From: a bacterium
Lineage (GTDB): Bacteria; Patescibacteriota; Minisyncoccia; UBA6257; WO2-44-18
Reading direction: 5' to 3'
Length of the DNA stretch: 64,000 bases
Assembly (NCBI GenBank): GCA_030646995.1
Contig: JAUSKF010000002.1
Coordinates: 76,092 to 140,091, forward strand
The position numbers and the translations under genes are program-made. Positions 6,138-58,439 of this stretch are shown here, in pieces; position 1 is the stretch's first letter; each line of letters begins with the position of its first letter. The notes under the pieces were generated by a model. The model searched no databases. It saw nothing but the letters and a program-made list of their open reading frames with translations, and was not told the DNA's origin.

Positions 6138-6689
6138 ATGTCTAAATTAGCTAAAAAACCAATAATCGTTCCGGCAGATGTAGAAGCCAAATTGGCCGAC
6201 GGGTTTTTGCGATTTTCCGGAAAAGAAGGAAAATTATCAGTAAAAGTTCTTCCTTATGTATCTGCTGAATTGAAAGATGGTCAGATAACTTTGAAATTGG
6301 AAAATGCCATCAAGCAGGGCCGCGCCAACATCGGCACGCTGGCGGCTTTGATAAAAAATTCGATTGCCGGTGTCAGCGCCGGATTCGTTAAAATTTTAGA
6401 AATGGAAGGCATCGGCTTTAAGGCCAGCATGGAAGGAACAACCATAGTTCTGACCGTAGGATTCTCTCATCCTGTAAAATATATTCCGCCTGACGGAGTA
6501 AAGGTGGTGGTAGAGAAAAATGTAATCAAAGTTTCCGGAGCCGACCGAGCCTTAGTTGGCTTGGCTGCGTCAAAGATCCGCAAAGTGCACCCACCGGAAC
6601 CTTATAAGGGTAAGGGTATCCACTATAAAGGAGAGGTGGTGCGACGCAAGGCCGGTAAAAAAGTTGCAGGCGCAGGAACGGCGGCCTAG
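6138..6689 (+). CDS. rplF: 50S ribosomal protein L6
   Basis: Start moved to MSKLAKKPIIVP (internal Met of the track ORF); two-domain L6. Confidence 0.88.
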   Translation: MSKLAKKPIIVPADVEAKLADGFLRFSGKEGKLSVKVLPYVSAELKDGQITLKLENAIKQGRANIGTLAALIKNSIAGVSAGFVKILEMEGIGFKASMEGTTIVLTVGFSHPVKYIPPDGVKVVVEKNVIKVSGADRALVGLAASKIRKVHPPEPYKGKGIHYKGEVVRRKAGKKVAGAGTAA

Positions 6690-6726: not shown

Positions 6727-7080
6727 ATGAACAAAGCACAACTAAAAAATTTAAACAGGGGATTGAGGCAGAAACGTAACCGAGCGCGTGTTTCCGGCGT
6801 CTCCGAAAAGCCGAGGCTTTCCGTATTCCGGAGCAATAAATACACCTACGCTCAACTCATCGATGATGTTAACGGCCGCACAATCGCCTCTGCCTCCACT
6901 CAAGAGCTAAAAAAGAAAGGCAAAAAAACCGAACTCGCCCAAGAATTAGGGGCTTTGATTGCCGAAAAAGCAAAAAAGGCGGGGGTTACGGAGGCAGTTT
7001 TCAATCGCTCGTTCTATAAATTCCACGGCCGCATTAAAGCAGTCGCCGAAGGAGCTAGACAAGGAGGCCTCAAAATTTAA
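6727..7080 (+). CDS. rplR: 50S ribosomal protein L18
   Basis: 117 aa, RLSVFRSNKYTYAQLIDD... typical L18. Confidence 0.85.
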   Translation: MNKAQLKNLNRGLRQKRNRARVSGVSEKPRLSVFRSNKYTYAQLIDDVNGRTIASASTQELKKKGKKTELAQELGALIAEKAKKAGVTEAVFNRSFYKFHGRIKAVAEGARQGGLKI

Positions 7081-7117
7081 ATTTTTAAATATTTAAATAA
7101 AAAAATACACAACCAAC

Positions 7118-9480: not shown

Positions 9481-9533
9481 GGGCTCCGGGAATAGCCTCC
9501 GGCATGTTCCTCGAAACTATTCCCTGCGCTTTG
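9481..9533 (+). repeat. short (53-bp) member of a dispersed structured repeat family (GGGCTCCGGGAATAG...CTATTCCCTGCGCTTTG)
   Basis: Matches the two ends of the 141/149-bp copies at 58299-58439 and 21179-21327; starts on the nucleotide after the secY stop codon. Confidence 0.7.
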
Positions 9534-9544
9534 TATAATATTGA

Positions 9545-9580
9545 AAAGCCCCGTTTTAAACGGGGCTTTGATTTTATTTA
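9545..9580. terminator. rho-independent terminator (bidirectional) after secY and after the minus-strand 199-aa gene
   Basis: AAAGCCCCG-TTTAAA-CGGGGCTTT stem then T-run. Confidence 0.7.
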
Positions 9581-12355: not shown

Positions 12356-13666
12356 ATGAAGCAAGAAAAAAGAAACAGAGTTCATTTCATCGGCATCGGC
12401 GGGATTGGTATGAGCGCTTTGGCGCGATATTTTTTATCCGAAAAATGGCAGGTCTCCGGCTCCGACCTCTCCCCTTCATCTATTACCGACGAATTAAGAA
12501 AGGAGGGGGTGAAATTTTTCTCTGGTCATAAGGCTGCGAATATTTCTACAAACATCCAACTCGTCGTCTATAACAATGCGATTCCCGTCAGTAATCAGGA
12601 GTTAAGCTACGCTAAAGAGCTTGGACTCGCCTGCCGCACCTATCCGGAGGTCGTGGGTGAATTAACTAGAACTTACAAAACCATTGCCATCGCCGGCTCA
12701 CACGGGAAAAGCACTACCACCGCAATGACGGCGCTGATTCTTATTGAAGCCGGAATCGATCCGACAGTAATCGTAGGCACAAAATTGAAAGAGTTTGGTC
12801 CGCCATCCGCCCCTTCTGGCGGAGGCGGAAAAAATTTCCGTAAGGGAAAAGGCGGGTATCTGGTGCTCGAGGCCGATGAATGGAAGGCCGCCTTCCACCA
12901 CTACTCCCCTTTTGTGGCGACTATCACCAATATCGATGCCGAGCATTTGGATTTTTATAAGACTTTCGCCAACGTAAAAAAATCTTTTGAGAAATTTAAA
13001 TCACAGTGCCATAAAATCGTGGAGCGTCCGACCGACAAAAAAATTGCGGAAAAGATTCGCCGCGTCTTAAAAATACCCGGAGAGCACAATGTGCAAAACG
13101 CCTTGAATGCCTACGCGGTGGCTAGTTTTTTGGAAATCCCAGAAAAGATAATTTTGTCGGCTCTGGGTAAATACCAAGGCGCTTGGAGGCGAATGGAGTA
13201 TCGCGGAAAACTCGGGAATGCCCTCGTTTATGATGACTATGGCCACCACCCCTCCGAGATTAAGGCTACCCTAGCCGGATTTAGGCAGAAATGGCCTAAA
13301 AATGCCCTAATTTGCGTCTTTCAGCCCCATCAGGCCAAGAGACTAGTTGCGCTCTATGATAGCTTTAAAACGGCGTTTAAGGACGCTAGTCGGGTGGTTA
13401 TTCTACCTACCTATCAGGTAGCGGGCCGGGAAGCGGAAAAAACCAACAACCGACGACTAACAACTAACGACAAAACGGCGGAGGGGCTGGCTAAGGACAT
13501 CGGGGCCACTTACGTTCCCCATCCCGAAATAGACCTGAAAAAAGTCTTACTTTCCCTAGTCGCCCGGTCGTCAGTCGTAGGTCGTCAGTCGCCCCCCGTT
13601 ATCGTAATGATGGGCGCCGGAACTATTAACGAACTAACCCCCAAGCTACTAACTACTAACTACTAA
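12356..13666 (+). CDS. murC: UDP-N-acetylmuramate--L-alanine ligase
   Basis: N-terminal HFIGIGGIGMSALA, Mur ligase middle domain GSHGKSTTTAM, YGHHPSEI motif. The 3' end sits in a CTACTAA heptanucleotide repeat. Confidence 0.8.
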   Translation: MKQEKRNRVHFIGIGGIGMSALARYFLSEKWQVSGSDLSPSSITDELRKEGVKFFSGHKAANISTNIQLVVYNNAIPVSNQELSYAKELGLACRTYPEVVGELTRTYKTIAIAGSHGKSTTTAMTALILIEAGIDPTVIVGTKLKEFGPPSAPSGGGGKNFRKGKGGYLVLEADEWKAAFHHYSPFVATITNIDAEHLDFYKTFANVKKSFEKFKSQCHKIVERPTDKKIAEKIRRVLKIPGEHNVQNALNAYAVASFLEIPEKIILSALGKYQGAWRRMEYRGKLGNALVYDDYGHHPSEIKATLAGFRQKWPKNALICVFQPHQAKRLVALYDSFKTAFKDASRVVILPTYQVAGREAEKTNNRRLTTNDKTAEGLAKDIGATYVPHPEIDLKKVLLSLVARSSVVGRQSPPVIVMMGAGTINELTPKLLTTNY

Positions 13667-21178: not shown

Positions 21179-21327
21179 CAAAGCGCAGGGAATAGTTTCG
21201 AGGAACATGCCGGAGGCGATTTTGCTTGGTTCGTTTGTTAATACAAACGAAAAATCGCCGAGGGAGAGGCAAATTTGCTCGCTGGAAGCAAATTATGCCG
21301 TTTCCGAGGGGCTATTCCCGGAGCCCC
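21179..21327 (-). repeat. 149-bp full-length member of the structured repeat family
   Basis: Reverse complement aligns end to end with 58299-58439 except for a different-sequence central hairpin; abuts the ychF stop codon. Confidence 0.7.
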
Positions 21328-22346
21328 TATCCGTGACGGAATTCGGTAACGTCCCCATCCTGAAACACATATTCTTTTCCTTCTAAGCGGAGCCAGCCTT
21401 TTTGCTTGGCAGAGCTCCAAGAACCGGCTTCTAATAGTTTTTGCCAGTTGATGACTTCAGCTCGGATGAATTTCTTTTCAAAATCGGTGTGAATAGCGCC
21501 GGCGGCTTGCGGAGCTTTGCTTCCCTGTCGGATCGTCCAGGCGCGAGATTCATCTGGTCCGGTAGTGAAGAAGCTCATTAGGCCGAGGATTTCATAAGCT
21601 TTTTTCACCAGCTCTGGAATTTCAGCGGCAGAAGAAAGATCAGACACCACATATCCCGCTCCCCTTTCGGCAATCTTTCCCTTCAAATCTTCAGACACAT
21701 CCTCCGGTTTGCCGTTCAATAAATAAACCTGCTTTTTCGCGGTGAGCAAATTTAGAGCGGAAACTTTTTCATTCTCCAAAGCCTCGGCAAATTCCGGAGT
21801 AGCCAAATTTTTCCCGGACTCCAATGCTTCTTTAACTTTTTTAATTGCTTCAAAATCTTTGATTGCCTGCTTTTGCGCGGGCCCGCCGGTTTTCGTGTCG
21901 CCTTCCGCTTTTTTATAAACTTTTTCTATTGAATCCAAATCTTTCAACCCCAGCTCGGCGTTGATAATCTCCATATCCCGAATTGGGTCAACCGAATTTT
22001 CCACGTGAATAATTTCACTACTCTGAAAAACACGAAGCACCATCAAGACCGCGTTGGTTTCGCGGATGTGGGTCAAAAATTTATTTCCCAAACCCTCTCC
22101 AGCACTCGCGCCCTTCACCAAACCGGCAATGTCGTAGAACTCCACTATGGCAGGAATGGTTTTCGCTGACTTACTCATTTCTGTAAGCTTGCTCAAACGC
22201 TCATCAGGAACGGTAACCACGCCTACATTCGGATCAATTGTGCAAAAGGGATAGTTGGCAATATTTACGTCATTTTTCGTGAGTATTTTAAAGAGCGTGG
22301 ACTTCCCCACGTTCGGCATCCCCACGATTCCGATAGATAATTTCAT
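21327..22346 (-). CDS. ychF: redox-regulated ATPase YchF (Obg-like GTPase family)
   Basis: MKLSIGIVGMPNVGKSTLF...NYPFCTIDPNVG; start set at the internal Met. Confidence 0.85.
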   Translation of the reverse strand: MKLSIGIVGMPNVGKSTLFKILTKNDVNIANYPFCTIDPNVGVVTVPDERLSKLTEMSKSAKTIPAIVEFYDIAGLVKGASAGEGLGNKFLTHIRETNAVLMVLRVFQSSEIIHVENSVDPIRDMEIINAELGLKDLDSIEKVYKKAEGDTKTGGPAQKQAIKDFEAIKKVKEALESGKNLATPEFAEALENEKVSALNLLTAKKQVYLLNGKPEDVSEDLKGKIAERGAGYVVSDLSSAAEIPELVKKAYEILGLMSFFTTGPDESRAWTIRQGSKAPQAAGAIHTDFEKKFIRAEVINWQKLLEAGSWSSAKQKGWLRLEGKEYVFQDGDVTEFRHG

Positions 22347-22419: not shown

Positions 22420-23532
22420 ATGAAACGAATCGTTCTGACTGGCGGACCTTGCGGTGGAAAAACCACAGGGAAAGAATATGTACGGGAAAAGCTGTTGAAT
22501 TATGGCCGCTCCCCTATCTTCGTTCCGGAGGTGGCAACACTAATCATTGGGTGCGGATTGAATCCTGGAGAACTGTCTCCGGAACAATATTTCGAATTCC
22601 AAAAACTTATCTTCAGCACCCAAATGAAATTTGAGGATGATATTTTCCTCAAAGCAGTAGAGATTAAAGCATCAAAAAAACCGATGATTATAATGGATCG
22701 GGGATTGATGGATGCCAAGGCTTATATGACTCCGGAAATGTTTGAGGCAGTGCTGAAAGATCACGGAATGGACGAAGTAGAGGCGCGGGATAAGCGTTAT
22801 GATGGCGTATTTCATTTGTCTACTGTAGCTGATGGCAAGCCAGAACTTTATAGTCAGGCAAATAATCCCTCCCGATTGGAAAAAACCCCGGAAGAAGCGG
22901 TATCTGCCGATCACAAGACGCGCAATGCCTGGCTTGGCCATCCGCATTTGCGAGTCATCGACAATTCCACAGACTTTGATCAGAAGATGAATCGTCTGTT
23001 GAACGAAATTCGGAGGTTGCTGGGAGATCCGGTTGCAATCGAAACCGAACGCAGTTTCGTGGTTCACGGAGGATTTCAGCTTCAGAAAATTCCTATTCCG
23101 TTCAAAAAAATCCACATCGAACAAGTTTATCTGAAGGGGAAAGCGGGAGAAGAAAGCCGGATACGCAGACGCAGTCAGGAAGATGCCGGTTCCGTCTACT
23201 ACGAAACCAGGAAACTGCCGGCCATTTCCGCCGCTTCTCGGCCGGAAAATGAATGGCAAATCTCCGCGAGGGAATACGCCAGCAAGCTTAGCTTGGCGAG
23301 TCCGGACCACGACATTGTCCGGAAAAATCGCTTCTGCTTCTTGTACAAAAATCAGTACTTTGAACTTGATAGGATTTTGGAACCGAAGCGACTATTTGGA
23401 CTCGTGCGCTTGGAAATTGAACTCACCGAAGAGAACGATAAGGTGGAAATTCCCGACTGGCTCGGGAAAGTCGAGGAAGTAACCGGCAATCCGAAGTGGA
23501 GCAACTACGAACTGTCCCGAAGGCCGAAGTAA
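22420..23532 (+). CDS. fusion protein: N-terminal P-loop nucleoside/nucleotide-kinase-like domain + C-terminal CYTH (triphosphate tunnel) domain
   Basis: IVLTGGPCGGKTT Walker A; C-terminal IETERSFVV...LEIELTE matches the CYTH ExExK start and closing acidic strands. Confidence 0.5.
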   Translation: MKRIVLTGGPCGGKTTGKEYVREKLLNYGRSPIFVPEVATLIIGCGLNPGELSPEQYFEFQKLIFSTQMKFEDDIFLKAVEIKASKKPMIIMDRGLMDAKAYMTPEMFEAVLKDHGMDEVEARDKRYDGVFHLSTVADGKPELYSQANNPSRLEKTPEEAVSADHKTRNAWLGHPHLRVIDNSTDFDQKMNRLLNEIRRLLGDPVAIETERSFVVHGGFQLQKIPIPFKKIHIEQVYLKGKAGEESRIRRRSQEDAGSVYYETRKLPAISAASRPENEWQISAREYASKLSLASPDHDIVRKNRFCFLYKNQYFELDRILEPKRLFGLVRLEIELTEENDKVEIPDWLGKVEEVTGNPKWSNYELSRRPK

Positions 23533-25064: not shown

Positions 25065-27080
25065 ATGAGTAAGTTCTGGAAATGTTCGACCGACGAAGAA
25101 GGAAATATGGTTGCCGAGCTTGATCTCGGACCGGATGAAAAGCAAAACCTTTTGCGGGCGGAAGTTCTGAAGGAATTGAACGTCATTTTGTCTACGAACA
25201 ACCCGAAGTGTCTGATTATCACGACTGCCAAGCCGCACAGTTTCTGCGCGGGCGCGGATGTCGGAGAAATCAACGCTTTGGCGAACGGGAAACAGGAACA
25301 TCTGGTAGCAGCTCTCGAGAGTATGCATGCGCTTCTGCTGAAGATTCGCAATTCCTCTTATCCAATCGTGGCCGCGACTTCCGGAGAATGTCTGGGGGGC
25401 GGAACCGAACTAGTACTCGCCTGCCACAAGCGCATTGCCGCAAGACACCCTAAGACGCGCTTCGGCTTGCCTGAAGTGATGCTGGGAGTGATTCCCGGTT
25501 TCGGTGGAACACAGCTGTTGCCAAAGTTGGTCGGAGTCCGGAAAGCAATGGAAGTGATTGTTGGCCAGAGGAAGCTCTCGGCTGATGATGCTCTCAAATG
25601 CGGATTAGTGGACAAAGTTGTGATTCCGGAACTGCTAATCGTGGAGGCAAAAAAAATTGCGTTTGAAGAAACGGAACGTAAGAAACTTTCGTGGGTAGAC
25701 AGAATCGGCGCCGTTCGTGATTTCGTGATGAGAATGGCAAAAAAGCAGACTCTGAAAGCCACGAAAGGTGTCTACCCTGCTCCGATGAAAGCCATCGAAG
25801 CAATCGATTTCAGCGACGCCAATCTGGAAGACGGTTTGGCCCGTGAAGGCCAACTCTTCCTCGAATGCGCCGCGACGATGGAGTCCGCCAGCTTGCGGGA
25901 TATTTTTCTGAAACAGCGCGAGGCAAAATCCAAAGATTGGATTGGTGTCAATCCGCCATCCGCCCATTCTGGCGGAGGCGGAACTCCTCCGGAAAAAGTA
26001 CTTATGCTCGGTGCCGGCGTAATGGGACGCGCAATCGCTTACGCCGTTCTGGCGGGAGGCGTGAGGGTGAACCTGCACGATATGAGTTCAAAAGCGATTC
26101 ACGAAGCGGTATTGTTCATCGAAGGACAGCTCGCTAAAGAAGTCAAAAAGAGCAAGCTCTCGCTTGAGAAAGCGCAGGGCATGCGCGATCGGCTGATTGT
26201 CAGCTACGGCGATGAGCCGACGATCGATGGCGTGGATTTCGTGATTGAGGCGATCGTGGAAGATCTGACCATCAAGCCGCGGGTTCTAGCCGAGCTGGAA
26301 AAGAAACTTCCGGAGAATGCGGTCATCGCCACCAACACTTCTTCGCTCCTGCCGAGCGATATTGCCGCTCCCCTGACTCGCAAAGACAAGTTCTGCGCGA
26401 TGCACTTCTTCAACCCGGCCCACAAAATGGACCTGGTAGAGATCGTTGGCACGGCGGAAACTTCCAAAGAAACTCTGGCAAAAACGCTGGCGCTCATCAA
26501 AGCGATGGGTAAGACCCCGATCCTTTTGGATAAGGAATGCGCCGGCTTGCTGGTGAATCGAGTACTGGTGCGTGGAATGGCTAAGGCGCTTGATTGTCTA
26601 TTGTCGGGAGAAGATCCTTGGGAAATAGACATGGCGCTCGAAGGGGCCGGAATGGTTATGGGTCCGTTCAAAACCATCGACCTCGTCGGCTTCGACATTG
26701 CCTACCACGTGATGAAGATGATGGGCCACTACTATCCGGAGATTTACGGGAAAACAGAAGTCGGCAATCTGGAGCTGCACAAGTTTAAGGACATACTCGG
26801 TCAGAAAACCGGTAAAGGTTTCTATGTCTGGGAGAACAACAAAGCCGTAAAGCCCAACAAGGAAATTTTGAAGAAGTTCGGCTGGGAGTTGTTCCCACAT
26901 GACAAAGAAATCGGAGCATTGGACTGCTGTCATTTGATCCGCAAAGAAATGAACGAAGAAGCGATGGCGCTCGTTAGCGAACGCATCTGCTCCGATCCGA
27001 ATATGATTGACCTCTCGCTGGTACTGGGTGCCGGACTCTTCCCGAACCGGCGCGGACTGCTGAAAAATCCGATCATCTAA
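25065..27080 (+). CDS. fadB: multifunctional fatty-acid oxidation protein (enoyl-CoA hydratase + 3-hydroxyacyl-CoA dehydrogenase, FadB/FadJ-like)
   Basis: N-terminal crotonase fold, then GAGVMGRAIA Rossmann NAD site, 3HCDH C-terminal domain; AAAGGGAG RBS. Confidence 0.8.
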   Translation: MSKFWKCSTDEEGNMVAELDLGPDEKQNLLRAEVLKELNVILSTNNPKCLIITTAKPHSFCAGADVGEINALANGKQEHLVAALESMHALLLKIRNSSYPIVAATSGECLGGGTELVLACHKRIAARHPKTRFGLPEVMLGVIPGFGGTQLLPKLVGVRKAMEVIVGQRKLSADDALKCGLVDKVVIPELLIVEAKKIAFEETERKKLSWVDRIGAVRDFVMRMAKKQTLKATKGVYPAPMKAIEAIDFSDANLEDGLAREGQLFLECAATMESASLRDIFLKQREAKSKDWIGVNPPSAHSGGGGTPPEKVLMLGAGVMGRAIAYAVLAGGVRVNLHDMSSKAIHEAVLFIEGQLAKEVKKSKLSLEKAQGMRDRLIVSYGDEPTIDGVDFVIEAIVEDLTIKPRVLAELEKKLPENAVIATNTSSLLPSDIAAPLTRKDKFCAMHFFNPAHKMDLVEIVGTAETSKETLAKTLALIKAMGKTPILLDKECAGLLVNRVLVRGMAKALDCLLSGEDPWEIDMALEGAGMVMGPFKTIDLVGFDIAYHVMKMMGHYYPEIYGKTEVGNLELHKFKDILGQKTGKGFYVWENNKAVKPNKEILKKFGWELFPHDKEIGALDCCHLIRKEMNEEAMALVSERICSDPNMIDLSLVLGAGLFPNRRGLLKNPII

Positions 27081-37869: not shown

Positions 37870-37883
37870 TGTTGTATATTCTA

Positions 37884-37945
37884 ACTATTTAAACATTTAA
37901 ATATTTAAATATCAAGCAAAAATTTAAATATCAAGAATTTAAATC
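37884..37945. repeat. cluster of ATTTAAATATTTAAA-type motifs upstream of greA
   Basis: TATTTAAACATTTAAATATTTAAATATCAAG...AATTTAAATATCAAGAATTTAAATC. Confidence 0.6.
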
Positions 37946-51240: not shown

Positions 51241-51257
51241 GGCGGTTTTTAGTTTTG

Positions 51258-51466
51258 GTGCCGCGGGAGGGAATCGCCTACAACTCTCGCCTCGCCGTCG
51301 CTCGGTTCGGTCGCAGGCCGCCCCTCGCGACCCCGCAAGCTTGCGGGGTATCGCTGCGTTCTTCAATATCCCTACGCGAGCCAAACAATTGGCTCGCTCC
51401 CGCCGCTACAAACAAAAAATAAAGCGCCTTTTCGTGGCGCTTTATTTTTCTGTTGTGCCGCGGGAG
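51258..51466 (-). ncRNA. GC-rich multi-hairpin segment ending (minus strand) in a 17-nt duplicate of the tRNA 3' end plus templated CCA (ATTCCCTCCCGCGGCAC-CA)
   Basis: Closed by a 12-bp helix 51262-51273 / 51395-51406; internal perfect hairpins ACCCCGCAAGCTTGCGGGGT and GCGAGCCAAACAATTGGCTCGC; terminators on both sides. Confidence 0.45.
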
Positions 51467-51761
51467 GGAATTGAACCCCCGACGCCAGCCTCTTCCAAAG
51501 GCTAGTTGGACTATCTCATTCCCGTTCTTAAAAACTTAAGAGTGCGGGATCGGGCGCTATTGCAGGATTATTGTTGGGACTCACCTGCTAGTCTCTACAC
51601 CTTCCAGAAAACTTAAACCCTTTCTGGCTCGGCTCGGGATTGTCGTATGCATATTTTACTATACATCCGGTTTTCCCCGAATTCACCCAATTTTTCGATC
51701 CGCATTACTACGGAAGGCCCCAAAGATCTAGGGCTGCGCTCTACCACTGAGCTACCGCGGC
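51467..51761 (-). tRNA. tRNA (inferred Phe, anticodon GAA) interrupted by a group I intron after U33; CCA not encoded
   Basis: Exons fold as canonical cloverleaf (acceptor GCCGCGG/CCGCGGC, D arm TAGCTCAGTGGTAGAGC, T arm GGGGGTTCAATTCCCTC, A73). Spliced anticodon loop is CU|GAAGA. Confidence 0.6.
51507..51729 (-). ncRNA. group I self-splicing intron (223 nt) in the tRNA anticodon loop
   Basis: P1 pairs 5' exon GCCCU with intron GGGGC (U.G at splice site); final nucleotide is G; P/Q/R/S-like elements GAATTCGGGGAAAA, CAATCCCGAGCC, GTAGAGACTAGCAGG, GAGATAGTCCAAC (P7 GACTA/TAGTC). Confidence 0.65.
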
Positions 51762-51764
51762 ATA

Positions 51765-52481
51765 CTAACTAAAATTGTGGTTCTTAACGCCATCTATCCA
51801 GCCAATTATGCGATGGAATAGCTTGGTATCACTTATTCTAACCTGCAAAACCCCATAAGGCAAGCGATTAAATGGCCTCTTTCCCATACTGGATTTACTA
51901 ATTCCAAGATAGGTTTTATTAAAGTTCTCCCTGGGAATACCGGTTGTCTTAACCCAATACTTCAGGGTCGCCTCAGCATTCATATGTTGAAAAATTCTTA
52001 AATTGGCTTTTATTTTCTCGACCGGTACTTTACAAATCTTTTTAATAAACGCCAAGAAGACATTGATTAAAACCGGATCAGCATTAGTAAGACTAATGGG
52101 GTGATATGTGACTTCCCTTCCACCTCTCACAATCGGCCGCTTATACCCCTCCGCCCAGTACAACGCCAAACCGATAAAAAATAGATTCTGAATAGAGATA
52201 TTTGCAATCTCGCCGTGCGCTAATTTCTGGATTTCTTCTTTTCTTTGCAGAGCCAAATGAGTTTGATTTTTATTTCTTTTCAAAAGGCCTTCCAACGATT
52301 TTTGTTTGGACCGATTCTCAATTTTTTCCCTTGCACTCGCGGATAAAACTATGTTTTTCAACCATAGCGACAAAGTAGACTTAGAAATACCAGGCAAGGT
52401 TTTCTGGATTTCGCTATAACTCTTGCCCTGCAACCGTAGCTTAATGGCCGAGAATTTATCATTACGCATTATATATATCAT
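51765..52481 (-). CDS. HTH + LAGLIDADG-like domain protein; candidate free-standing homing endonuclease ending 4 nt from the intron-containing tRNA
   Basis: N-terminal HTH KSYSEIQKTLPGISKSTLSLWLKN; motif FIGLALYWAEGYK resembles a LAGLIDADG helix ending in E-G. Confidence 0.3.
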   Translation of the reverse strand: MIYIMRNDKFSAIKLRLQGKSYSEIQKTLPGISKSTLSLWLKNIVLSASAREKIENRSKQKSLEGLLKRNKNQTHLALQRKEEIQKLAHGEIANISIQNLFFIGLALYWAEGYKRPIVRGGREVTYHPISLTNADPVLINVFLAFIKKICKVPVEKIKANLRIFQHMNAEATLKYWVKTTGIPRENFNKTYLGISKSSMGKRPFNRLPYGVLQVRISDTKLFHRIIGWIDGVKNHNFS

Positions 52482-55411: not shown

Positions 55412-55484
55412 GGTCTCATCGTCTAGTTGGTCAGGACATACGGTTCTCATCCGTAAAACATGGGTTCGAATCCCATTGGGACCA
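55412..55484 (+). tRNA. tRNA-Glu (anticodon CUC), CCA not encoded
   Basis: Cloverleaf with acceptor GGTCTCA/TGGGACC, D arm TCGTCTAGTTGGTCAGGAC, loop TTCTCAT, T arm ATGGGTTCGAATCCCAT. Confidence 0.8.
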
Positions 55485-55649
55485 CAAAACTCAAAATAAA
55501 TCTGGGATTCGAACCCAGCAGCACACCGTGTTGGAAGGCGCTCGGAAACCAGAAGGTGTCCGAGACGGGGGTCGGGGTGCTGCGATAGTGGTTCGGCAAA
55601 CATTAGGCGGCAGCCTCAATGCGCAGCGAAAATCCCATTGGGACCACCA
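55485..55649 (+). ncRNA. structured GC-rich segment ending in a 17-nt duplicate of the tRNA-Glu 3' end plus templated CCA (AATCCCATTGGGACCAC-CA)
   Basis: 7-bp helix GCAGCAC/GTGCTGC enclosing hairpin CTCGGA..TCCGAG; T-arm-like TGGGATTCGAACCCA on the opposite strand. Confidence 0.45.
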
Positions 55650-55652
55650 AAA

Positions 55653-56615
55653 TTACGAGATCAACTTCTTCAACTCTTCCACCATCGGAACATTTTCCGG
55701 GTCAGCTCCGTATGCTTCAGCTAGGTAAAAAGCGGTCCAATCCGCCAAAAGAGTGCTGGAGAATATTTTCTCCCAAACATTACCGCCGGTCATTTCAATT
55801 TCTTCAACACCAAATCCCCTGTCCCGATAAAGCTTAGCGGTCACTGCCATCCGCTTTCCGATGCGCGGATGATCTTCTGAATCGCGCAGGAAAATAAAAT
55901 GGAAATTTTCCGCGATTGGTTTTGCTTTTGGCGCGCAATCAAAGCCGGTCATTTCGTTGTGATTCAATTCCGGAAACCGGTTGGCGAACGCCGGAATTTT
56001 CGCCGTTTCGTTAAATTTTATTTTCCAATTATAAGCGACGGGCATATTCACCCGCGAAGTATAAATAACCGGAACTTTTCCCACCAACTTCTCCGCCAGC
56101 TTCTTTCCGGCAACTTCGGACGGCTTGGTATTCAATTTCGCCACGGCGGCGATCTCTTTCAACGCCTCATCCATCCCCAATAGCGCCAAAATCGCCTTTA
56201 TGCTGAAGCCCGTAGCCATTCTGGGCTGGATACCGTCCGCCGGCAATTCAACGTAAGGCAAACCTAACTCCTTCGCTTTCGCCAGCAACTTCCCTCCCGC
56301 GGCCACCACTGCAACCGCCAAGCCAAATTCTGTCGCCGTCTCCATAGCGCTCAAAGTTTCTTCAGTATTTCCGGAGTAAGAACTGGCGATCACCAAAGTG
56401 CGGCTCAAATCGGCTTCAGCAATTTCCGGCAGGCCATAATCGCGATGGATCACCAGGTCCAGCAATGGATTCCAAACTTTCAAAAGATCCGCTCCCAAAC
56501 TGGAACCGCCCATTCCGGCAACTACAAATTTGCTGTATTGATGCAGTAAATCTTCGTTCTCTATTTTCGGCGCCCAAGCAAACTGCTTGGGGAAATTTTG
56601 GATCGCTTCTTTCAT
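55653..56615 (-). CDS. bifunctional phosphoglucose/phosphomannose isomerase (SIS-domain, archaeal-type PGI/PMI)
   Basis: SIS motif VVAGMGGSSLGADLL, two SIS halves, ~320 aa. Confidence 0.6.
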   Translation of the reverse strand: MKEAIQNFPKQFAWAPKIENEDLLHQYSKFVVAGMGGSSLGADLLKVWNPLLDLVIHRDYGLPEIAEADLSRTLVIASSYSGNTEETLSAMETATEFGLAVAVVAAGGKLLAKAKELGLPYVELPADGIQPRMATGFSIKAILALLGMDEALKEIAAVAKLNTKPSEVAGKKLAEKLVGKVPVIYTSRVNMPVAYNWKIKFNETAKIPAFANRFPELNHNEMTGFDCAPKAKPIAENFHFIFLRDSEDHPRIGKRMAVTAKLYRDRGFGVEEIEMTGGNVWEKIFSSTLLADWTAFYLAEAYGADPENVPMVEELKKLIS

Positions 56616-58298: not shown

Positions 58299-58439
58299 GG
58301 GCTCCGGCCAATAGCCCCTCGGAAACGGCATAATTTGCTTCCAGCGAGCAAATTTGCCTCTCCCTCGCTTCGCCACTTTAGATAAGACCAAGCTGGCGAA
58401 GCTCCGGCATGTTCCTCGAAGCTATTGGCCTGCGCTTTG
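58299..58439 (+). repeat. 141-bp full-length member of the structured repeat family, in the divergent SPFH / membrane-protein promoter region
   Basis: Shares both ~50-bp arms with 21179-21327. Central hairpin differs in sequence but keeps pairing. End pairing GGCCAATAGC/GCTATTGGCC covaries with GGGAATAG/CTATTCCC of the other copies. Confidence 0.7.

Follow-up and report, generated by a model that had tools for sequence, protein, structure and literature searches.

The tRNA-Glu gene and the duplication of its 3' end

The window, the whole stretch of 64,000 nucleotides that was analysed, is a housekeeping region of a member of the Patescibacteria (CPR) coding for SecY, Adk, MurC, several aminoacyl-tRNA synthetases, TGT and Sua5. 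A complete, intron-less tRNA-Glu(CTC) gene is found at 55412–55484 (+) (ARAGORN; Rfam tRNA, 65.1 bits). CCA is not encoded in the gene, which is followed directly on its 3' side by C-AAAA. As proposed in the preliminary description of this DNA, the 3' end of the gene is present a second time downstream. The proximal copy (55469–55485, +) corresponds to tRNA nt 58–73 plus C74, is the exact 17-mer AATCCCATTGGGACCAC and forms an attL-like junction within the gene. The distal copy, termed S3 below (55631–55649, +), corresponds to nt 58–73 (A73 at 55646) followed by CCA (55647–55649), and its end is 3 nt away from the stop codon of the phosphoglucose isomerase (PGI) gene (55653–55655, minus strand). 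The 17-mer occurs exactly twice in the window (55469–55485 and 55631–55647) with none expected (100 shuffles), which rules out a chance origin of the pair. The copies are 162 nt apart from start to start and 145 nt intervene between them, a value that corrects the 148 nt given previously. The layout is not an artefact of MAG assembly because an independent Logan assembly (SRR13727527) reproduces the junction: the succession of PGI, distal copy and spacer is matched base for base up to the hairpin within which the contig stops.

Anatomy and predicted fold of the element downstream of tRNA-Glu

The intervening DNA begins with an A-rich trailer (55486–55502, +). Homologous copies of this region in the related loci L163, L171 and L166 have an intrinsic-terminator hairpin at that place; sequence inspection and a terminator scan found no terminator between tRNA-Glu and the element in the window. 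The trailer is followed by S1 (55503–55517, +; TGGGATTCGAACCCA), a 15-nt exact inverted match that is the perfect reverse complement of the tRNA-Glu T-arm (nt 50–64, positions 55461–55475). This is the T-arm-like sequence reported earlier on the opposite strand, where it was read as a possible tRNA fragment; it is no stray fragment but an integral, tRNA-matched segment of the element that pairs with the distal repeat. A hidden tRNA or tRNA-like gene on the minus strand of the spacer was considered and discarded, the candidate having neither an acceptor strand nor a model match. On that strand the inverted T-arm copy (55502–55518) reads as a T-arm-like hairpin followed by AUUUAUUUUG, is terminator-like by scan, and this hairpin with its U tract may terminate the convergent PGI gene.

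The remainder of the element is composed of two conserved core domains separated by a second tRNA-derived segment. Core domain 1 (55518–55589, +) is formed by the 7-bp helix GCAGCAC/GTGCTGC (55518–55524/55577–55583), which encloses the hairpin CTCGGA...TCCGAG (55541–55564) and short helices; both the helix and the hairpin had been described and are present. Its counterpart in L166 (16889–17017) is 90% identical and every pair is kept in both. S2 (55590–55595, +) is GGTTCG, a sense copy of tRNA nt 52–57. Core domain 2 (55596–55630, +), a conserved hairpin with a stem at about 55600–55622 and the loop GGCA, interrupts the copied tRNA sequence precisely between nt 57 and nt 58, and shows one compensatory change between the window and L166 (A-U to U-A).

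In the predicted fold the 5' half of S1 pairs with the first 7 nt of S3 and its 3' half with S2, so that the T-arm sequence of tRNA nt 52–64 is rebuilt as a 13-bp duplex, broken by the hairpin at nt 57/58 where the tRNA identity begins. The last 12 nt of S3 (acceptor 3' strand, A and CCA) are predicted to be single-stranded. On one strand the element thus has inverted target-like segments whose predicted pairing imitates the target as a duplex, a feature of attC and attP sites, and its pairing is kept with compensatory changes in the copy found behind tRNA-Phe. The ends of the element, TGGGATT and AATCCCA, are complementary, copied from the tRNA and different in the Phe copy; the duplication measures 17 nt.

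The consensus fold derived from both full copies comprises 45 pairs, every one of them standard in each sequence, and slid controls of this fold gave 27–41% paired positions. Five pairs are changed on both sides, one goes from G-U to G-C and none is broken, a covariation that is statistically weak as it is drawn from two sequences, the only full Glu-type copies found; the other differences fall within loops or bulges. Strand assignment by folding energy was dropped, the two strands being alike in this respect. Because plus and minus strands fold about equally well, the predicted structures would not distinguish RNA from single-stranded DNA as the active form, nor the plus from the minus strand. 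Note that two G-U pairs are valid on the tRNA-sense strand only.

Homologues of the element and their match to the neighbouring tRNA

Comparison was made with about 170 related loci (1.13 Mb) fetched via the neighbouring PGI gene and designated here by L numbers; a metagenome scan with PGI yielded no relative above 60% identity. Positions 55506–55634 of the window align over 129 nt, at 89.9% identity (E 7e-42), with an element of L166 that lies behind tRNA-Phe, from which it is separated by a terminator. The coding DNA of the window and L166 is 67–72% identical. Each of the three tRNA-derived segments matches its own tRNA, Glu in the window and Phe in L166: S1, the reverse complement of the T-arm, is TGGGATTCGAACCCA in the former and GGTGAATCGAACAC in the latter, S2 (nt 52–57) is GGTTCG and TGTTCG, and S3 (nt 58–74) is AATCCCATTGGGACCAC and ATTCACCCCCGCGGCAC, respectively. 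The double change in S2 and S1 (C-G to A-U, columns 14/89) reproduces position 52 of tRNA-Phe. Since pairing alone required no S2/S1 change, the sequences argue that the tRNA-derived segments would have been copied from the target rather than merely compensated.

A covariance model of the two Glu-type copies (R1) matches only window 55503–55637 and L166 16886–17020 in 1.1 Mb; its copies amount to one in the window and to one full and one decayed in L166 (1.13 Mb of fragments searched). Decayed copies of the core follow tRNA-Glu in L171, L166 and probably L163 (up to the contig end), while the element is absent at tRNA-Glu in L162, L002, L165, L167 and L003. A second type of spacer is shared by L164, behind tRNA-Glu, and L002, behind tRNA-Phe (94% identity vs 70–80% in coding DNA).

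The tRNA-Phe locus of the window

The window has a second duplication of this kind at a tRNA-Phe(GAA) gene (51456–51761, −) that was missed by ARAGORN. The gene is split by a group I intron at about 51486–51739, in the anticodon loop at 33/34 (Rfam Intron_gpI, 41.4 bits vs a gathering score of 50, E 3.7e-07; sequence). Group I insertion at the identical site has been reported for Patescibacteria tRNA-Phe (PMC13011429), and the relatives L002, L003 and L165–L167 have an intron-less tRNA-Phe. The 5' end of the intron-containing gene abuts a 238-aa ORF (51765–52481, −) that is not found in L002. In its product an HTH_23 domain lies at the N terminus, and a LAGLIDADG-like motif (LALYWAEGYK) can be made out by eye; its identity as a LAGLIDADG homing endonuclease was unsupported by Pfam and PDB sequence searches.

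The distal copy of tRNA-Phe nt 58–73 plus CCA is located at 51256–51274 (−) and is followed by a terminator common to the convergent pseudouridine synthase gene. The spacer (51275–51455, −) is unrelated in sequence to the Glu spacer. It comprises a bidirectional terminator (51421–51443) and GC-rich hairpins, a degenerate inverted copy of the tRNA-Phe 3' end (51397–51407) and an inverted T-loop-like piece (51361–51373). It is a homologue, in reverse orientation, of the tRNA-Phe spacer of L002, including the terminator and the old distal copy.

The duplicated unit has the same extent at the Glu and Phe loci, as described before. No significant sequence (pairwise alignment) and no covariance model is shared by the two spacers, model R1 giving no match in the Phe spacer. 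Pairwise alignment of all spacer types showed clear homology for the Glu-type pair alone, and a single family for both spacers of the window holds only at the level of architecture. In the preliminary description such a result was held to leave independent integration scars at the two loci. This is contradicted by the 90%-identical homologue of the Glu spacer behind tRNA-Phe elsewhere, because that homologue has tRNA-matched ends and structure-preserving substitutions and because all modules have one fold architecture.

Recurrence of the layout behind other tRNA genes

Seven modules with a same-strand downstream repeat of the tRNA 3' end were found when all 73 tRNAs were scanned. Besides the Glu and Phe modules of the window (spacers of 145 and 181 nt), they are those of L166 Phe (172 nt), L002 Phe (about 170 nt), L059 Ser (about 118 nt), L071 Asp (about 128 nt) and L080 Ala (about 86 nt). 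The repeat starts at T-loop nt 56–58 in all seven and ends at nt 73–76. The part of the earlier proposal that recognized here the classic extent used by tyrosine integrases at tRNA genes is therefore borne out in seven loci; the integrase itself was not found among the ORFs scanned in the window. An inverted copy of the cognate T-arm lies a few nt past the tRNA trailer or terminator in 5/7 modules. Modules unrelated in sequence (L059 Ser, L071 Asp and window Phe) have the same fold plan as the Glu element: a helix that closes the structure and is made of T-arm-derived segments, hairpins inside it and an unpaired tail from the acceptor strand. Mismatches accumulate in the distal copies of L002 and L080.

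CCA is present in the distal copy, with CAA in the proximal one, in three modules; the pattern is reversed in L080. CCA is encoded by 13/56 distinct tRNA genes of these loci (23%). The distal CCA as proof of reverse transcription is weakened by this frequency and by the reversed module. The base following the discriminator is C in 50 of the 56 genes (CAA in 18, CAT in 11, CCA in 13), and it looks as though a trailer retaining C74 only is conserved in these CPR genomes.

Plasticity of tRNA loci in the clade

The tRNA loci of this clade are unusually plastic, and the Glu-type element is one well-defined component of this plasticity. With the PGI-Sua5-TGT genes, which do not change, as the reference, tRNA-Glu and tRNA-Phe read (+,−) in L002, L003 and L167 and (−,+) in the window, L165 and L166; both tRNAs flip jointly in all six genomes showing both. 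In-situ inversions are seen between L165 2825–2899 and L167 933–1007 and between L165 5582–5692 and L167 3928–4035. Inversion of the tRNA is also observed between the window and L002, L162 and L171, with the surrounding protein genes keeping their orientation. Flipping by recombination between inverted repeats of the acceptor stem or of the T-loop was considered, and the models worked by hand failed at the observed junctions.

Partial tRNA copies in the related loci have boundaries that cluster at the anticodon loop (nt 34–37) and at the T-loop (nt 55–58). Two loci, L086 (about 1700–2130, +) and L046 (about 6200–6680, −), have an intact tRNA-Ile(GAT) nested within the anticodon loop (35/36) of a second tRNA-Ile. 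The inner gene is flanked by 10–15-bp inverted repeats; the outer one differs from it in the acceptor stem, and its D and variable loops are further interrupted by GC-rich hairpins. Tandem units are found upstream of tRNA-Glu in L170 (2120–2435) and L004 (1295–1430). Each consists of a promoter-like flank, tRNA-Glu nt 1–35, a GC-rich anticodon-loop hairpin and CACGGCAC. These tandem 5' halves are the 5'-side counterpart of the 3'-end duplications.

Other repeats and structured motifs of the window

A structured repeat, CAAAGCGCAGGGAATAGTTTCGAGGAACATGCCGGAG ... CCGGAGCCC, is present in three copies, at 21179–21330 (+), 58300–58430 (−) and 9491–9545 (−). Two share an identical insert of 58 nt and also have a variable hairpin, the third being short and "empty"; the repeat has no Rfam match and may represent either another mini-element or a regulatory RNA acting in cis. 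The motif ATTTAAATATTTAAA occurs about 11 times in intergenic DNA, in short tandem pairs (641–983, 2672–2705, 7070–7113 and 37879–37941), and is possibly a promoter or regulator-binding motif. A weak match resembling the ZMP/ZTP riboswitch (22425–22542, +; 30.4 bits vs a gathering score of 39) aligns the conserved GACUGGCG...CCGCC features. The GC-rich palindromic repeat TCCGCCATCCGCCC.TTCTGGCGGAGGCGGAA of 32 nt is found twice (12799–12830 and 25952–25983) with 97% identity.

Searches for genes, RNA families and viral sequences

Pfam scans of the 39 larger ORFs across the 64 kb gave no match to an integrase, a transposase or a reverse transcriptase. An ORF is lacking in the 145-nt insert, and searching billions of predicted proteins with its translated frames brought up no homologue. 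The region 55486–55650 gave no Rfam match at the gathering threshold and none at E<=5 in a window-wide search, local search at E<=10 returning only short chance matches of at most 20 bits. There is no Intron_gpI signal in the Glu spacer. Exact scanning of viral contigs with three core motifs produced nothing besides one chance match within a coding region. No empty-site allele with alignable flanks and no circular or excised form was seen.

Nature of the element

A family of non-coding, strongly folded elements of roughly 130–165 nt exists directly 3' of tRNA genes in one clade of Patescibacteria. Its members are found behind different tRNAs with matched ends, are better conserved than the surrounding genes and are missing or decayed in close relatives. 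From their distribution alone we infer that they are mobile. The preferred reading, to which a probability of about 0.5 is assigned, is that 55486–55630 is a copy of a miniature, non-autonomous element whose homing target is the T-loop of tRNA genes, the tRNA remaining intact. The direct repeat would be a duplication at the junctions, nt 58–74 in the gene being attL-like and S3 attR-like, and insertion would retain a complete tRNA. The conserved core carries three segments derived from the neighbouring tRNA (S1, antisense to nt 50–64; S2, nt 52–57; S3, nt 58–76). The element would spread by recombining within the T-loop, through the action in trans of a recombinase presumably encoded elsewhere, and the folded strand is probably the att site that mimics the target, by analogy to CTX-phage attP and integron attC. 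Note that recombination as modelled covers S3 and the proximal copy, not the match of S1 and S2 to the new tRNA.

A rival reading is that of a functional small RNA, transcribed with or beside the tRNA, with an antisense T-arm at its 5' side and a 3' tail that mimics the tRNA end. It might act as a decoy, a sponge or a processing signal towards enzymes or toxins recognizing the ends of tRNAs; movement from one tRNA to another would be secondary. Its structure-preserving substitutions, a conservation exceeding that of the flanking genes, the two G-U pairs valid on the tRNA-sense strand only, the terminator-free stretch from tRNA to element in the window and the common architecture with a free NCCA tail of unrelated cores all speak for such an RNA. 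However, the closest relatives lack the element or have only decayed copies of it, so that it is dispensable, and in L166, L163 and L171 a strong terminator separates tRNA and element, where a promoter would not fit. Moreover, the minus strand folds at least as well, no Rfam family is matched and the distal copies of L002 and L080 accumulate mismatches. As the sole explanation the small RNA is judged unlikely; a functional RNA that mimics the tRNA end is compatible with mobility and is a live rival.

The anticodon loop and the T-loop are the two classical integrase sublocations, and the boundaries of partial tRNA copies in the related loci fall at both. Williams (2002) reportedly described T-loop-type att sites of tRNA-integrating elements whose extent is like that of the repeats found here. 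The element could be an integration scar, a kb-sized, integrase-borne island or prophage that entered the T-loop of tRNA-Glu with a tRNA 3' end of its own and later shrank to attL, attR and 145 nt, since the repeat extends from T-loop to 3' end as such integrations leave it. Partial tRNA genes are generally explained as attR of integrated elements, with examples of 9–23 kb (PMC9897764). Against this stand the absence of an integrase among the 39 ORFs of the window, the seven spacers of about 86–181 nt with no gene remnant and the constant position of S1 within a few nt of the trailer or terminator. Random deletions would also not yield a 129-nt core that is 90% identical in genomes about 70% alike, behind a different tRNA and with matched internal segments. 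The miniature element is favoured over such a scar, which is regarded as improbable, because decay of a large island leaves the small spacers, the constant position of S1, the 129-nt core and the segment swap unexplained.

The plasticity described above could suggest that there is no element at all and that the distal and inverted T-arm copies are debris left by a flipped or replaced tRNA. Among relatives, tRNA-Glu and tRNA-Phe change direction with respect to PGI and TGT, and do so together; L165 and L167 are 87% identical overall, yet an identical tRNA-Glu is inverted in place; the Phe spacer of the window holds, inverted, the distal copy and terminator of L002; and an intact tRNA-Ile is nested in a disrupted one in L086 and L046. 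Rearrangement does not, however, explain a conserved core at Glu and Phe loci with perfect 14–15-nt segments matched to the tRNA, and L165 is flipped but free of a module, showing that flipping alone does not make one. We consider debris a quite doubtful explanation of the module.

Splicing of a mature tRNA-Glu from an exon ending at nt 57 and the distal nt 58–76 with CCA, across a T-loop intron, would fit the distal rather than proximal encoding of CCA and the abundance of tRNA introns in Patescibacteria (PMC13011429), but is highly improbable given that the proximal copy already completes a high-scoring tRNA, that the 162 nt have no group I or group II signature, that the introns known in this phylum lie in the anticodon loop (PMC13011429) and not in the T-loop, and that CCA is encoded in 13/56 tRNA genes with the proximal/distal pattern reversed in L080.

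Relation to known systems

The miniature element resembles the tRNA att sites of tyrosine recombinases by the direct repeat that starts in the T-loop and completes the gene, the intact gene, the displaced partial copy and the patchy presence. It differs from the elements that use such sites (9–23 kb or more) by an insert of about 86–181 nt in which neither a recombinase gene nor kb-scale cargo was found, by the antisense and second sense copies of the T-arm, and by the occurrence of one core at two tRNAs with matched ends.

The predicted fold would also be like the forked hairpin of CTX-phage attP(+) (a Xer-dependent IMEX) and like integron attC, small units whose inverted target-like copies fold into a target-like duplex and whose recombinase acts in trans, as proposed here. 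The target would in this case be a tRNA T-arm, unlike dif or attI, and the duplex is broken by a hairpin where crossover is presumed to occur. MITEs have in common with the element a length of 100–200 nt, the lack of coding capacity, a strong fold, short terminal complementarity, patchy distribution and decayed copies; unlike in MITEs, the complementary ends are derived from the target, the 17–20-nt duplication is always of the same part of the tRNA and the copy number per genome is apparently very low.

A scaffold with sense and antisense target-matching segments that change with the target may also recall the bridge RNA of IS110 and the omega RNA of TnpB/IscB. The analogy does not extend to an attached recombinase or nuclease gene, to the lengths and positions of the segments, which misfit, or to any Rfam or sequence match. 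Retroviral primer-binding sites and the Mauriceville retroplasmid of Neurospora likewise involve a copied tRNA 3' end that runs from about nt 58 as far as CCA, and three distal copies have CCA while the gene does not. Unlike those copies, the ones described here are in tRNA sense and adjoin their own gene; in addition, 23% of the tRNAs encode CCA, one module is reversed and no reverse transcriptase was found in the window.

Implications for tRNA loci of Patescibacteria

It is tentatively proposed that these sequences represent a new class, miniature tRNA-homing elements or tRNA-linked RNAs, in which three re-writable segments templated on the tRNA would together make up a self-contained att site or guide that can be retargeted, so that a unit of 150 nt could move between tRNA genes and regenerate an intact tRNA each time. 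Movement of this kind may likewise be what causes tRNA genes of the clade to flip in situ and to become nested. Partial tRNA copies are routinely dismissed as attR scars of large islands, whereas the "scar" found here is a conserved, folded and gene-less unit. If confirmed, it would be the smallest known tRNA-targeting mobile element and a natural, retargetable recognition site based on structure. It would lead one to ask which enzyme, acting in trans, recognizes a T-arm that a single strand has rebuilt, and would provide an annotation rule to tell real tRNAs from fragments. It would also help to explain the rearranged tRNA loci, with their flipped and nested genes and half-copies, of the tiny genomes of Patescibacteria.
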